A stretch of DNA of 64,000 nucleotides, taken from the NCBI GenBank assembly GCA_016204695.1, contig JACQKD010000014.1:18562-82561 (forward strand). Reading direction: 5' to 3'. The translations under genes were made by a program, and so were the position numbers. Origin of the DNA: Candidatus Kaiserbacteria bacterium. GTDB taxonomy: Bacteria; Patescibacteriota; Minisyncoccia; Phycocordibacterales; UBA918. Shown in pieces: positions 29,032 through 39,150 of this stretch (position 1 is the stretch's first letter; every line of letters begins with the position of its first letter). The notes below the pieces were generated by a model. The model was not told where the DNA came from, did no database searches, and saw only the letters and a list, made by a program, of their open reading frames with translations.

Positions 29032-29104
29032 GCCACCTTAGCTCAGTTGGTAGAGCACCACTTTCGTAAAGTGGGGGTCCTCGGTTCAATCCCGAGAGGT
29101 GGCT
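29032..29104 (+). tRNA. tRNA-Thr (anticodon CGU)
   Basis: Cloverleaf: acceptor gccacct/aggtggc, D arm tagctcagttggtagagc, anticodon stem ccact/agtgg with loop ttCGTaa, T arm ctcgg-ttcaatc-ccgag. Confidence 0.8.
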
Positions 29105-29178
29105 CCGAGAGTGCGAGCACAGAAAAATCCGCGGAAAAGCGTAGGTGGGGTAAACTGCTATTATGATATGGTAGTAGT

Positions 29179-29886
29179 ATGCTGATTCTCACAAAAAACA
29201 TTCTGGAGAAAGAGTACTGTAACAACAAAAAATCAGTCGCTGAGATAGCTAAATTTTTTAATTGTTCGCAACACAAAATAAACTATTGGCTGGGTAAGTA
29301 TCACATTCCTAAAAGAAAAATTTCGGAAGCGATGTATATCAAATGGAATCCGAGGGGTGATCCTTTTGCCTTTAATAACCCACAAACCTTAGACAAAGCA
29401 TTCCTATGGGGATTGGGACTCGGATTATTTTGGGGAGAAGGTAATAAGAAGAACACGGACTCGGTCCGACTGGGTAACGTGGATCCCGGACTTATACGAA
29501 CGTTTTTAAAGTTTCTTGACGAGATCTATACTATTGATCATGCACGACTGAGATTCGGGCTTCAGACTTTTACCGACATTGGTGAGAATGCGGCAGTCGC
29601 TTATTGGTGTCGGGAGTTGCGAGCAAACCGCCGACAATTCTATAAAGTTACAGTCACGCGCTCTGGAAGTCTTGGAACATATCGAGAAAAAAGTAAGCAC
29701 GGAGTTCTAACTATCTATTTCCACAACAAAAAACTTCGTGATAGTATCGTCAATGCGATTGGGGAATTGGGTTCTGGTTCCATTCGCAAAAGTGCCATCT
29801 TAGCTCAGTTGGTAGAGCGCGTCCATGGTAGATCGCAAAAGATCTCTGCCCTTTGGGACAGAAACGTCCCATCGAATCCCGAATAA
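29179..29886 (+). CDS. HTH plus degenerate LAGLIDADG-like (putative homing endonuclease) protein; the 3' end runs into the tRNA-Thr(GGU) 5' exon
   Basis: N-terminal HTH-like KSVAEIAKFFNCSQHKINYWL; central AFLWGLGLGLFWGEGN resembles a single LAGLIDADG motif (acidic E in the catalytic position) followed by an I-CreI-like FLKFLDEIY region. The locus is AT-rich. The exact C-terminus is uncertain because the frame stays open through the tRNA exon into the intron. Confidence 0.4.
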   Translation: MLILTKNILEKEYCNNKKSVAEIAKFFNCSQHKINYWLGKYHIPKRKISEAMYIKWNPRGDPFAFNNPQTLDKAFLWGLGLGLFWGEGNKKNTDSVRLGNVDPGLIRTFLKFLDEIYTIDHARLRFGLQTFTDIGENAAVAYWCRELRANRRQFYKVTVTRSGSLGTYREKSKHGVLTIYFHNKKLRDSIVNAIGELGSGSIRKSAILAQLVERVHGRSQKISALWDRNVPSNPE

Positions 29887-30075
29887 CGGTCAACGGCCTG
29901 ACACCGGTTAAGACCGTGGCCTTCTCTCAATAGAAGGCCCGAACGACTGACACGGGAAGTTTCATTCGCCGACGGGTGAAGATGCTTAAGATACAGTCTA
30001 GCCCTCTTATAGTGTCTGTCGAAAAAGAGGTGTAAGCGAAGGACGAGGTCCCCGGTTCAATCCCGGGAGATGGCT
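29794..30075 (+). tRNA. tRNA-Thr (anticodon GGU) interrupted by a 209-nt intron in the anticodon loop (between positions 36/37)
   Basis: 5' exon 29794-29829 (acceptor gccatct, D arm, anticodon stem cgtcc, loop atGGT) and 3' exon 30039-30075 (aa, ggacg, variable aggtc, T arm cccgg-ttcaatc-ccggg, acceptor agatggc, discriminator t). The joined exons closely resemble canonical bacterial tRNA-Thr(GGU). Confidence 0.6.
29830..30038 (+). ncRNA. putative group I intron (209 nt) in tRNA-Thr(GGU)
   Basis: Boundaries obey group I rules (5' exon ends in U, intron ends in G). The size is similar to the smallest known tRNA group I introns. An internal acagtctag segment resembles a P7/R-element-like sequence. 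No ORF inside. Confidence 0.45.
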
Positions 30076-36116: not shown

Positions 36117-36350
36117 GTGGCGACAGTAATTCGAGAGCTTATCTCTCACTACAAATTCGCTCTGATAGTTTCCCGAGCCGACTACCTCTATACCGGCGAC
36201 CAACCGGTCCAAGCGGGCGATAGCCTACGCCTCATTCCATGGAACGAGGCAACGGATTGTCCTGCAGGAGACGGTGTAACCCGGCTTATACGAAAAGCGG
36301 CTCCGGAAGGGAAATGTATGCGGCTTACCTGGTATATGGACATTATATAG
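36117..36350 (+). CDS. small hypothetical protein (77 aa)
   Basis: GTG start preceded by a strong AGGAGG RBS at a 7-nt spacing; no homology recognised. The region could alternatively hold an ncRNA. Confidence 0.25.
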   Translation: MATVIRELISHYKFALIVSRADYLYTGDQPVQAGDSLRLIPWNEATDCPAGDGVTRLIRKAAPEGKCMRLTWYMDII

Positions 36351-36390
36351 GTACGTCCAATGCCAGGAACATACCTATATGCTACAGTAT

Positions 36391-36423
36391 GGACGCATCA
36401 AATGATGCGTCCACCTATTTTTT
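36391..36423 (+). terminator. rho-independent terminator abutting tRNA-Gln
   Basis: ggacgcatc-aaat-gatgcgtcc followed by acctatttttt. Confidence 0.5.
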
Positions 36424-36493
36424 GCCGGGTCGTCTAATGGTAGGACTCGGGACTTTGAATCCCGCTATCTTGGTTCGAATCCAAGCCCGGCAG
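36423..36493 (+). tRNA. tRNA-Gln (anticodon UUG)
   Basis: Acceptor tgccggg/cccggca with U1-A72 (typical for bacterial tRNA-Gln), anticodon stem cggga/tcccg with loop ctTTGaa, T arm cttgg-ttcgaat-ccaag, discriminator G. Confidence 0.8.
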
Positions 36494-36707
36494 CAATATG
36501 TATTGGAGCTTTGCCGTAGTAAATAATAGATTAGCGGAAGTATTCTTTGATAAGACCAAAAAGGGTACGACAAAAATCCACGGACATTGCTATGTCAAGA
36601 AGGAAGAATATAAAACCAAAAAAGAACAATTGTGGATCAAGAAAGACTGCGAACGAATCCGTCTTGTATACAGAAACAAAAAGTATCGTAAAATAGGATA
36701 GCTCGCT

Positions 36708-37361
36708 ATGAAATTACTTCTCACCTCGTCCGGGTTTACGAATACATCGATAACAAATGCCTTGCGGGAATTACTTGGTAAAGACTTCAAAGACACGAAT
36801 CTTGTATTTATCCCGACCGCCGCCAATGTCGAGACAGGCGGCAAAGAGTGGCTCATCGACGACTTTATCGCGTGCAAAAAACTCGGCTTTAAGGAAATCG
36901 ATATAGTCGACATCGCGGCCGTCCCGCAAGAAGTATGGGAACCTCGGCTCAAGAACGCGGACATCATCATGGTCGGCGGAGGCAACACCTCATACCTCAT
37001 GGGACAGATAAAAAAGTCAGGGCTGGGAACCCTTCTGCCCGACCTGCTGGAAACACGCATCTATGTGGGCATAAGCGCCGGCAGTATGGTAACTGCGCCG
37101 AAGTTGCAAGAAAAAGAAATGCAAATGCTCTATAACGAACCGATTTTTGATGACGAAACCAATGAGGGTTTGGGCTTTGTTGATTTTCTCGTCGTGCCGC
37201 ATATGAATTCGCCGCACTTCCCTCGTGTCGCCGAACAGATAGACGAAGTTGCCAAAGACACCGATGTCCCGTTCTATGCGCTGGACGACCAATCGGCCGT
37301 GAAAGTTACTGACGGAAATGTCGAAGTCGTTTCAGAGGGGAAGTGGAAGCGATTTAATTAG
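36708..37361 (+). CDS. peptidase S51 (peptidase E/cyanophycinase-like) family protein
   Basis: GISAGSMV nucleophile motif (G-x-S-A-G-S); type-1 glutamine amidotransferase-like fold pattern. Confidence 0.6.
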   Translation: MKLLLTSSGFTNTSITNALRELLGKDFKDTNLVFIPTAANVETGGKEWLIDDFIACKKLGFKEIDIVDIAAVPQEVWEPRLKNADIIMVGGGNTSYLMGQIKKSGLGTLLPDLLETRIYVGISAGSMVTAPKLQEKEMQMLYNEPIFDDETNEGLGFVDFLVVPHMNSPHFPRVAEQIDEVAKDTDVPFYALDDQSAVKVTDGNVEVVSEGKWKRFN

Positions 37362-37563
37362 TTCCTTTGATTGACCACTTTTGCTGATGCGGTAGCCCAG
37401 TTTTTGATTCCTGTGATCGCACTCACTTTCGGTACATCTACTCCCTGTGGCGTCATCCAAGTCTTCGTCCTCGTTTCCGCCATATCAGCCCTCCTCTTCC
37501 GCCAGACAAGTCAAACGGGTACAATGCCCAGCATTATGTGGCCAGACCAATGCAGAGCAACAA

Positions 37564-38010
37564 ATGGCGACTTGTAAAGATCTAAAAACAATTGCAAAAG
37601 CAAGACTGCGGAGTGCAGTAATTCTAATCGATGCTGGCGACTGGGATGGAGCGGCTTACATGATGGGTTACGTCCTAGAATGCGCTCTTAAGGCTGCTGT
37701 ATGCAAGTCGCTACGGTTGACAGACTACCCTCAAAATCGTAAAACTGATACCCATTTTCTCACACATAACTTCGATCAGCTCGTTGTTTTATCAGGGGTA
37801 TCGGACTTATTTGATTCCAACGCAAGCTCAAGTGTGTTCCAAAATTGGTCCGACTTTACAAAGGAGTTTTTGGGTGATTGGCCTGCTATGAGATATAACA
37901 TTCAACACCAACAGACATTTACTGAAATCAAAGTGAGAGACCTGTATACTAACCTTACAGACAAACCAGATGGAATTCTCGCCGTGATAACTAGAAAAAA
38001 ACGATGGTAG
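37564..38010 (+). CDS. HEPN domain protein
   Basis: Helical pattern AKARLRSAVILIDAGDWDGAAYMMGYVLECALKAAVCK and an R-x4-H motif (AMRYNIQHQQ); AT-rich locus; start at internal ATG of ORF 37447. Confidence 0.5.
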   Translation: MATCKDLKTIAKARLRSAVILIDAGDWDGAAYMMGYVLECALKAAVCKSLRLTDYPQNRKTDTHFLTHNFDQLVVLSGVSDLFDSNASSSVFQNWSDFTKEFLGDWPAMRYNIQHQQTFTEIKVRDLYTNLTDKPDGILAVITRKKRW

Positions 38011-38393
38011 AAAAATTTGAAAAAATATTAGAGAAAATCAAATCCGAGAAGGGGCCTCTGACCTTCTTTGGTATATTCAAGATGGATGAATTAACAGATA
38101 AATGGTCCGTCCTATTGTCCGCTACATGGGCATCGGAACACAGCAAAAGAATAGAGGCATTTGAATATCTTTTAGATCTCTTAAGAAAAAATTTGACCTC
38201 GGAGGAAGCACGTTCAATTGCTCGCATCGGAGTATTCTCAAACGATGAACATTTGATCGATTTACTATTGAATTTCCAAAAAGGTTCAAGGATCAGAGAA
38301 CAAAGTATCAACGGAAACATCATACACGATGGCTATGTGTTAGAAGCCAATCGAATAGTCGAATCAGAAATTGTCCCTATACCCGATTATTAG
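38004..38393 (+). CDS. hypothetical protein, translationally coupled partner of the HEPN gene
   Basis: ATG overlaps the HEPN stop (atggtag); 129 aa. There is no nucleotidyltransferase (MNT) GS-x9-D-x-D motif, so it is not a canonical HEPN-MNT partner. Confidence 0.45.
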   Translation: MVEKFEKILEKIKSEKGPLTFFGIFKMDELTDKWSVLLSATWASEHSKRIEAFEYLLDLLRKNLTSEEARSIARIGVFSNDEHLIDLLLNFQKGSRIREQSINGNIIHDGYVLEANRIVESEIVPIPDY

Positions 38394-38412
38394 TTTTATC
38401 ATTACTTCTTAT

Positions 38413-38796
38413 ATGCAAGAACAACTGGATACTGCGGGGGAGTTTTCGCTGGTGAGGCGGGCGAGGAGTTTTGTGCATGCGGGGAGGGGCATTTGGGTAT
38501 TTTTGAAAACCACGCCGAATGCATGGATTGAAATCACCATATTCATCGGAGCGGTAGCGGCCGGTATCGTCGTCGGCCTCACCTATATCGAATGGATCCT
38601 GCTCGTATTTGCCGCAGGATTCGTTCTCGTGTCCGAGGCCTTCAATACGGCCATAGAAATAGACATCAACCTCACCTCTCCCGAATACCATCCCTATGCC
38701 AAAGATACGAAAGATGTCGCCGCAGGCGCGGTGCTCATCGCCTCCATCACCGCCCTCATCATCGGTCTCGCCATCTTCGGCCACCATCTGCTATAG
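38413..38796 (+). CDS. dgkA: diacylglycerol kinase family protein (DgkA/undecaprenol kinase-like)
   Basis: VSEAFNTAIEIDIN and YHPYAKDTKDVAAGAVLIA match prokaryotic DAGK motifs; three TM helices. Confidence 0.75.
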   Translation: MQEQLDTAGEFSLVRRARSFVHAGRGIWVFLKTTPNAWIEITIFIGAVAAGIVVGLTYIEWILLVFAAGFVLVSEAFNTAIEIDINLTSPEYHPYAKDTKDVAAGAVLIASITALIIGLAIFGHHLL

Positions 38797-38798
38797 TT
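38767..38798. repeat. direct repeat copy 1 (3' end of dgkA), also found at 41468-41499
   Basis: ctcgccatcttcggccaccatctgctatagtt versus ctcgccatcttcggccgtcatctgctatagtt (30/32 identical). Confidence 0.6.
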
Positions 38799-38811
38799 CC
38801 ATATCCACCGC

Positions 38812-39150
38812 ATGCAAAAAGTATTGTCCATATCTCTATATTCGGCCCCGATCATTTTGATGATCGGATTGATCCCTTTGATCCGGGACGACTATGTGCT
38901 CACCGCAGTCTATATAGTGATTATTGCCGTATCTCTCAAATTGATTACGGCGAAACGAAACGACCTTGTTGTCCTCATATTCGGTTTTTTCGCGATGATT
39001 GTCTCCGAATACATCTTCATCAGCACGGGCGCGGAAACATTCGTCAGGAATTCCTTGTTCGGTCTCATGCCCCTTTGGCTACCATTTCTGTGGTCCTATG
39101 GTTTTGTCGCGATAAAGAGGGCGATGGCAGTGCTTGGAACAGACAGGTAA
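38812..39150 (+). CDS. small integral membrane protein (hypothetical)
   Basis: Four predicted TM helices; 112 aa. Confidence 0.45.
   Translation: MQKVLSISLYSAPIILMIGLIPLIRDDYVLTAVYIVIIAVSLKLITAKRNDLVVLIFGFFAMIVSEYIFISTGAETFVRNSLFGLMPLWLPFLWSYGFVAIKRAMAVLGTDR

Follow-up and report, generated by a model that had tools for sequence, protein, structure and literature searches.

A HEPN-domain gene and its obligate partner gene form what is probably a new variant of toxin–antitoxin or phage-defence module in Candidatus Kaiserbacteria

HEPN RNases are central effectors of toxin–antitoxin (TA), abortive-infection and CRISPR-associated systems, and small stand-alone HEPN proteins are mostly regarded as companions of MNT adenylyltransferases, among which MntA AMPylates the tyrosine of the RX4HXY motif. 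In Legionella, a HEPN protein owes its metal dependence to residues of helix 2 (PMC11586414). Bacteria of the candidate phyla radiation (CPR) have few known defence systems, and both their mobile elements and their defences are poorly known. Here we analyse a two-gene locus in a 64,000-nt stretch of DNA (hereafter the window) from contig JACQKD010000014.1 of a Candidatus Kaiserbacteria (CPR/Patescibacteria) metagenome-assembled genome (GCA_016204695.1). The first gene (positions 37564–38010, + strand) encodes a 148-aa HEPN-domain protein, a putative RNase toxin, and the second (38004–38393, +) encodes a 129-aa partner, a putative antitoxin or regulator. We consider this cassette to be probably a new variant of a TA or phage-defence module, with a partner family that is undescribed in the libraries searched.

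Among described systems, the HEPN/MNT type VII TA modules (Shewanella SO_3166/SO_3165, Aphanizomenon HEPN/MNT and Legionella HEPN-MNT) are the most similar: they too join a small HEPN protein of the nucleotidyltransferase-associated clade to an alpha/beta partner of ~100–130 aa, they are likewise mobile and patchily distributed, and MNTs are among the Protein Data Bank (PDB) matches of our partner model. Yet the cassette fails the tests that define these modules, since the partner has neither nucleotidyltransferase motifs nor a PF01909 or PF18765 match nor profile similarity to MNTs, and the HEPN protein has no conserved RX4HXY; the cassette also differs in placing the HEPN gene first and in its fixed 7-nt overlap. 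Judged from these sequences, AMPylation-type neutralisation is unlikely in the window cassette. A second comparison is with the AF0298-like HEPN-T proteins (PF05168; PDB 2hsb) and AbiV, with which the window HEPN shares an exact E39/H68/R110 pattern, and both 2hsb and AbiV are among the Foldseek matches of its model. The AF0298-like proteins have been described as MNT-associated (PMC3710099) and AbiV is neutralised by an RNA, as in type III systems (bioRxiv 10.1101/2024.05.05.592566), whereas the window cassette has a conserved protein from another family as its partner. Finally, proteins of the HEPN family weakly match the PDC-M28A model of PADLOC (five of six tested, E 1.2e-4 to 6.9e-9), but the partners match no PADLOC model, that of the second PDC-M28 component included, so the locus does not make up the two-component system. 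Our literature search, whose coverage was incomplete, found no paper describing the HEPN–partner pair or mentioning PDC-M28, and the only papers found that join HEPN, Patescibacteria and TA systems were surveys of archaeal defence systems.

The public annotation lists the first gene as a 187-aa “HEPN domain-containing protein” starting at a GTG (37447) and the partner as a hypothetical protein. Homologues place the start further downstream: 31 of the 37 aligned are 145–152 aa long, and 34 of the 37 begin within one residue of the ATG at 37564, nearly all with ‘MA...’. On the strength of these lengths and aligned starts, ATG 37564 is almost certainly the true start, and the 39-residue N-terminal extension (37447–37563) is probably an annotation artefact. 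The window protein itself scores just under the PF05168 gathering score (21.9 bits against 22), so its assignment rests on family-level and structural evidence. PF05168 matches 35 of the 38 members of the HEPN family at E ≤0.1 (best E 1.7e-6), several homologues carry a precomputed PF05168 match, and the AlphaFold2 (AF2) model (pLDDT 93.6) is all-helical, as befits the HEPN bundle fold. The best PDB matches of this model in Foldseek were 1wol and 1ufb (probability 1.00, TM 0.67–0.68), followed by 4nqf, 3o10, 1o3u, 2hsb, 2q00 and 8xeh, all of them with weak E-values (0.08 and above); the proteins behind these matches are ST0689, TT1696, 4nqf, sacsin HEPN, TM0613, AF0298, the Legionella HEPN toxin and AbiV. 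The family profile gave no match to PDB chain sequences, and the window protein matches phrog_5737 (E 4e-14) and PDC-M28A (E 6e-6). By profile and predicted structure, then, the first gene encodes a HEPN domain protein of the small, nucleotidyltransferase-associated HEPN-T clade, and its sequence places it in an AF0298-like HEPN-T / PDC-M28A-like / phrog_5737 subfamily.

Functionally, the active site appears to be of an alternative kind. An initial annotation of this DNA had correctly recognised a HEPN gene, and had cited as its signature an R-x4-H motif, RYNIQH, which is present in the window protein but is not the conserved active-site motif of the family: across the 38-sequence alignment, the arginine is kept (R110, 97%) and the histidine at +5 (H115) is not, with 20 motifs read by eye mostly carrying arginine there. 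The family thus has no conserved Rx4-6H RNase motif, nor an RX4HXY with its acceptor tyrosine; its own motif is M-R-Y-[DN], in which an invariant tyrosine follows the arginine at +1. Invariant positions are E39, K43, H68 and Y111, and R14 is also among the invariant or nearly invariant residues. In the AF0298-like HEPN-T proteins and AbiV, the motif histidine has been lost and the arginine kept, a second conserved histidine lies in an insert between helices 2 and 3, and helix 2 carries an acidic residue, a layout that has been proposed as an alternative RNase site (PMC3710099). In the AF2 model of the window protein, helix 2 spans residues 27–49 and the following helix begins at residue 70, so that E39 and H68 sit where the description of that site requires. 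As aligned and modelled, the conserved E39/H68/R110-Y111 set matches the alternative active site of AF0298-like HEPN-T proteins and AbiV.

The pairing of the two genes is obligate. The partner lies directly downstream of the HEPN gene in all 61 metagenome loci found via the HEPN protein, and 21 further distinct loci (16 found via either gene, three distant partner homologues, one IMG/VR contig and one faint case in a Klebsiella phage) are all paired too; these counts cover loci with enough downstream sequence, none of which is without a partner. For four of the 61 loci, the longest-open-reading-frame rule takes an earlier start, and the partner open reading frame (ORF) there scores 1e-37 to 1e-44. 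Scanning for the close subfamily with alignment A1 as the query gave eight hits among 185,579 species-representative genomes, all of them in Patescibacteria (Roizmanbacteria, Levyibacteriota, Nomurabacteria and others), and all with the HEPN gene upstream of the partner. The genes in the window share the seven nucleotides ATGGTAG (38004–38010, +; junction cgATGGTAGaa), in which the start codon of the partner lies inside the final tryptophan and stop codons of the HEPN gene. An identical ATGGTA[GA] overlap occurs in more than 50 of the 61 metagenome loci and in most other close-subfamily loci, and it accounts both for the “(K/R)W*” in which the HEPN protein ends and for the “MV” with which the partner begins. 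Such conservation suggests that translation of the partner is coupled to that of the HEPN protein. Both the overlap of the HEPN stop codon with the ATG of the 129-aa gene and the expectation that the pair would be syntenic elsewhere, raised in the initial annotation from this locus, are thus borne out.

Evolutionarily, the two proteins diverge together: over 57 non-identical pairs, the pairwise-identity matrices of HEPN protein and partner correlate with r = 0.71, and the maximum of 1000 label permutations was 0.25. The locus accordingly has the make-up of a type II-like module, being a conserved unit of two small, adjacent and co-oriented genes that is both patchy and mobile. With the HEPN protein as the query, the phage collection yielded one distant match, Klebsiella phage Kp4864-1 (OK490416.1, locus L023 2483–3288), which encodes a HEPN protein of the same subfamily (hhalign probability 97.9%, PDC-M28A E 7e-9). 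There, the HEPN gene is followed by an overlapping 134-aa ORF that resembles the partner family solely, and faintly, in a C-terminal ‘NG’ segment (hidden Markov model [HMM] E 0.025), and this ORF may be a very divergent partner. The phage collection gave no match with the window partner as the query, nor did the plasmid collection with the distant partner member P0195.

The partner belongs to a large family. Among representatives of 50%-identity clusters, a profile built from 29 close homologues retrieved 1004 at a threshold of E ≤1e-3, of which 244 pass E ≤1e-10, and the four distant members that were checked all lie downstream of a PF05168-type HEPN gene, one of them in an LptE-encoding bacterium where the flanking DNA has a GC content of 0.61. 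Searches of Pfam, PADLOC, NCBIfam and PHROGs with the window partner gave no match, family members (135 diverse members in the case of Pfam) matched no described family in Pfam or PADLOC, and the family profile reached only chance-level scores against PDB sequences (MarR, E 0.1; histidine racemase, E 0.42). Across the broad family, F22, W34, R74 and G104 are the only positions with at least 90% conservation, and moderate conservation is seen at D/E28 (93%), D/N32 (84%), K/R33, E/D68 (91%) and N103. The pattern of codon-position differences (0.455, 0.296 and 0.602 for positions 1, 2 and 3) indicates that the partner evolves as a protein. Two simpler accounts of the downstream gene were considered and rejected: a chance ORF, in view of the ~1000 homologous clusters and a confident predicted fold, and an AbiV-type RNA antitoxin, in view of this protein-like evolution and of PF18728 matches in just 3 of the 38 HEPN family members (E 0.0024 or weaker). 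Some partner homologues are longer, at 250–300 aa: in P0162 and P0190 the C-terminus carries short peptides repeated in tandem (NPVYNHTI... and NPNINGRI...), in P0204 the entire partner domain is duplicated in tandem, and one member of the broad alignment (A3) carries a SEC-C motif.

Structurally, the partner has a predicted alpha-beta-beta-alpha-alpha-beta-alpha-beta-beta topology (AF2 model, pLDDT 84.6), and its Foldseek matches raise the question of whether it descends from an MNT. MntA/MNT antitoxins take ranks 2–6 (probability 0.82–0.97, E 0.03–0.07), behind MafI2 (PDB 8hhj), an immunity protein to the RNase MafB2, at rank 1. A likeness to MNT antitoxins is striking in a protein paired with a nucleotidyltransferase-associated HEPN. 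These scores lie in a grey zone, in which RimP, BolA and CzrB/MamM-type domains score against the partner model as MNTs do. The best structural match of MafI2 is itself CzrB (PMC9970974), and because MafI2 resembles such generic CzrB-like domains, its match to the partner may reflect nothing but a common small fold; MafI2 has no sequence similarity to the partner (7–9% identity), and MafB2 has an RNase A fold rather than a HEPN fold. At the sequence level, the G[SG]...DxD motifs of Pol-beta nucleotidyltransferases are missing from all 29 close and 135 broad members, as the initial annotation had noted for the window protein, the position equivalent to the first catalytic aspartate is an almost invariant tryptophan, and none of the 135 members matches PF01909 or PF18765. 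To compare the families directly, we used a profile built from 40 bona fide MNTs (PF18765/PF01909), which was collected with a self-written consensus-like query and recognises the MNTs in the PDB. Against this profile, hhalign gave the broad partner alignment A3 a probability of 2.6% in local and 0.08% in global mode, and alignment A1 one of 1%, so that homology to MNTs is unsupported by sequence. We therefore treat MNT ancestry, which predicted fold and genomic logic would suggest, as an evenly balanced hypothesis. The initial annotation’s proposal of a new partner family thus holds in that no described family was matched in the libraries searched, but at the level of fold the partner is perhaps a degenerate MNT, in which case the module would be a derivative of HEPN-MNT systems rather than unrelated to them.

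Compositionally, the gene pair is foreign to its surroundings. The window as a whole has a GC content of 0.519, and the pair (37564–38393), at 0.399, is the lowest-GC 830-nt stretch within it (z = −3.5). GC content at third codon positions (GC3) is 0.396 in the HEPN gene and 0.385 in the partner gene, against 0.61 ± 0.06 (minimum 0.47) over 29 long ORFs of the window. Immediately upstream, by contrast, the peptidase S51 / class I glutamine amidotransferase-like gene (36708–37361, +; Pfam PF03575, E 2.7e-33) looks native (GC 0.494, GC3 0.592), so that only the two genes are foreign and the S51 gene lies outside the mobile cassette. The initial annotation had merged these features into one AT-rich islet downstream of a tRNA-Gln(UUG) gene (36423–36494, +; ARAGORN and Rfam). 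Its AT-rich dips are real, both over the pair and in the 213-nt spacer directly 3′ of the tRNA (36495–36707, GC 0.352), but because the native S51 gene separates the two, they are distinct things: an AT-rich spacer after the tRNA and a foreign two-gene cassette. We take the spacer to be probably non-coding because its one lysine-rich ORF of 67 aa (36498–36701) has no exact counterpart in a collection of 15 billion proteins.

Elsewhere, too, the pair stands out from its hosts. In 14 of 14 other loci it is AT-richer than its flanks (pair GC 0.30–0.42, flanks 0.37–0.61), the most extreme case being 0.35 against 0.61, and its neighbours vary from locus to locus, including GatB/GAPDH, GroEL, Obg and LptE/holA genes, type III and MmeI-type restriction-modification genes, large serine recombinases with HNH and NOV_C genes, ABC/AAA and Schlafen-AlbA genes, a DDE transposase and a prophage integrase fragment. 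From these sequences, the pair looks like a horizontally acquired, mobile two-gene cassette. In two genomes (loci L004/L005 5428–10351 and L009 1–1818), the pair adjoins restriction-modification genes, namely those for a type III-like N6_N4 methylase together with ResIII, and for an MmeI-type enzyme, which fits the clustering of HEPN-T genes with restriction-modification operons that has been described (PMC3710099). A prophage-like IMG/VR contig (UViG_2627854072_000002, locus L088 3974–4758) encodes a 137-aa HEPN protein (HMM E 9e-19) and a 130-aa partner (HMM E 2e-10) directly after a fragment ending in a tyrosine-recombinase-like motif. A slot after a recombinase fragment is typical for prophage-borne defence genes. 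In a Candidatus Roizmanbacteria genome, a 269-aa ORF with a nucleotidyltransferase-like GS...DME (locus L018 1261–2070, −; a regular-expression match, hence a candidate only) begins on the strand opposite to the pair, 18 nt beyond its downstream end.

Taken together, we lean towards reading positions 37564–38393 as a TA or abortive-infection cassette, in which the HEPN protein would act as an RNase toxin through the alternative E39/H68/R110 site, and the partner, an alpha/beta family protein of ~120 aa presumably made by translational coupling through the ATGGTAG overlap, would bind it directly and so neutralise or gate it. Binding rather than AMPylation is proposed because the partner lacks Pol-beta nucleotidyltransferase motifs, and the partner may descend, with loss of catalytic activity, from the MNT antitoxin with which HEPN-T proteins are normally paired. 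This reading draws on the HEPN clade, the obligate and coupled pairing, the co-divergence, the mobility and the patchiness, as well as on the neighbouring restriction-modification, recombinase and prophage genes, the match to a PADLOC candidate and the absence of an obvious catalytic constellation in the partner. Several observations weigh against it. The canonical Rx4-6H histidine is absent from the HEPN protein, which makes its catalysis a conjecture; the gene for the putative toxin precedes its partner, an order that is less common than the reverse; divergence rates of the two proteins are similar (mean identity 0.42 and 0.41), whereas antitoxins often evolve faster than their toxins; and the pair sits amid housekeeping genes, with no defence genes nearby, in several genomes. 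Nor does the partner show the autoregulatory DNA-binding domain typical of a type II antitoxin, with no consistent helix-turn-helix, ribbon-helix-helix or AbrB match, none of these in the AF2 model, and sub-threshold Bac_DNA_binding matches in 3 of the 29 members (best E 0.016). The low hhalign probabilities against MNTs count on the same side. Were the partner instead a divergent but active nucleotidyltransferase, or another enzyme modifying the HEPN protein, the cassette would be a type VII-like module with Tyr111 as the likely target. The MNT antitoxins among the best structural neighbours of the partner, the invariant tyrosine directly after the motif arginine, the acidic partner positions kept at 28, 32 and 68 and the HEPN-T clade of the first protein all speak for such a mechanism, but we think it unlikely given a partner family that has neither G[SG] nor DxD, a near-invariant tryptophan at the first catalytic position, no PF01909 or PF18765 match, next to no similarity to the MNT profile and just four positions at or above 90% conservation.

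A quite different role would be that of a non-toxic, two-subunit factor for RNA binding or processing, with a non-catalytic HEPN protein and its obligate partner serving the cell. The missing canonical histidine, the equal divergence rates of the two proteins and the position of the pair between housekeeping genes in some genomes (GatB/GAPDH, GroEL, LptE/holA) are all in keeping with this, and some HEPN domains are non-catalytic RNA binders (PMC3710099). A cellular factor of this kind would, however, sit poorly with the patchiness of the close subfamily (those eight hits among 185,579 genomes), with a pair that is always AT-richer than its host and has different neighbours in every genome, with its adjacency to restriction-modification genes, recombinases and a transposase and its occurrence in prophage-like DNA, and with a HEPN protein that matches a PADLOC defence-candidate model and keeps invariant polar residues in the layout of the proposed alternative active site; we accordingly hold it to be improbable. 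Hardly any weight is left to the account in which a single AT-rich island (36494–38393), S51 gene included, integrated at the tRNA-Gln. The tRNA 1 kb upstream and the AT-rich spacer directly after it are what such an event might leave, but the S51 gene is native, no integrase or recombinase is seen among the ORFs at 34.5–41 kb, no flanking direct repeats were found, the window has no second copy of the tRNA 3′ end, and the pair lies next to an S51 gene in none of nine other gene-annotated contexts. Of the horizontal acquisition at a tRNA that the initial annotation had proposed, the acquisition is supported and the tRNA site is not.

The significance of the locus lies in a HEPN subfamily that is always coupled to one large, conserved family absent from Pfam and PADLOC, and a partner acting as antitoxin would be a new neutralisation partner for HEPN toxins. 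We also put forward, with more doubt than confidence, that the cassette represents a widespread and unrecognised HEPN conflict system (~1000 partner clusters at 50% identity, spanning Patescibacteria/CPR, other bacteria and (pro)phages), in which an RNase with an alternative active site would be held under the control of a catalytically dead MNT descendant. Such a system would document how an enzymatic antitoxin turned into a binding one, a shift in evolution from enzymatic (type VII) neutralisation to neutralisation by binding, and with the close subfamily concentrated in CPR/Patescibacteria it would possibly be a main TA or abortive-infection module of CPR bacteria. Practically, the cassette can easily be annotated in metagenomes by its fixed ATGGTAG overlap and constantly low GC content.

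The remaining features of the locus provide context. Between the S51 gene and the HEPN start lies a 202-nt spacer (37362–37563, +; GC 0.505), which may carry a promoter of the cassette or be crossed by read-through from the S51 gene; a promoter and terminator scan of 36300–38900, this spacer included, gave nothing above chance, and no flanking repeats were found over the same range. Downstream, a diacylglycerol-kinase-family gene (38413–38796, +; Pfam DAGK_prokar, E 2.9e-28) begins with an ATG 19 nt past the partner stop and has native composition (GC3 0.656). Searching metagenomes with the S51 protein yielded no relatives, and hence no unoccupied junction between the S51 and diacylglycerol kinase genes for comparison. 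Rfam identified two tRNAs over the entire window and nothing else, and a link between the tRNA-Gln and the cassette is unsupported. The other tRNA, tRNA-Thr (29032–29106), is directly followed on its 3′ side by the patch with the second-lowest GC content in the window (29107–29950), which holds an AT-rich ORF of 235 aa (29179–29886, +). This patch may be another foreign insertion adjoining a tRNA, and the ‘GLGLGLFWGEGNK’ segment of its ORF looks reminiscent of LAGLIDADG homing endonucleases.

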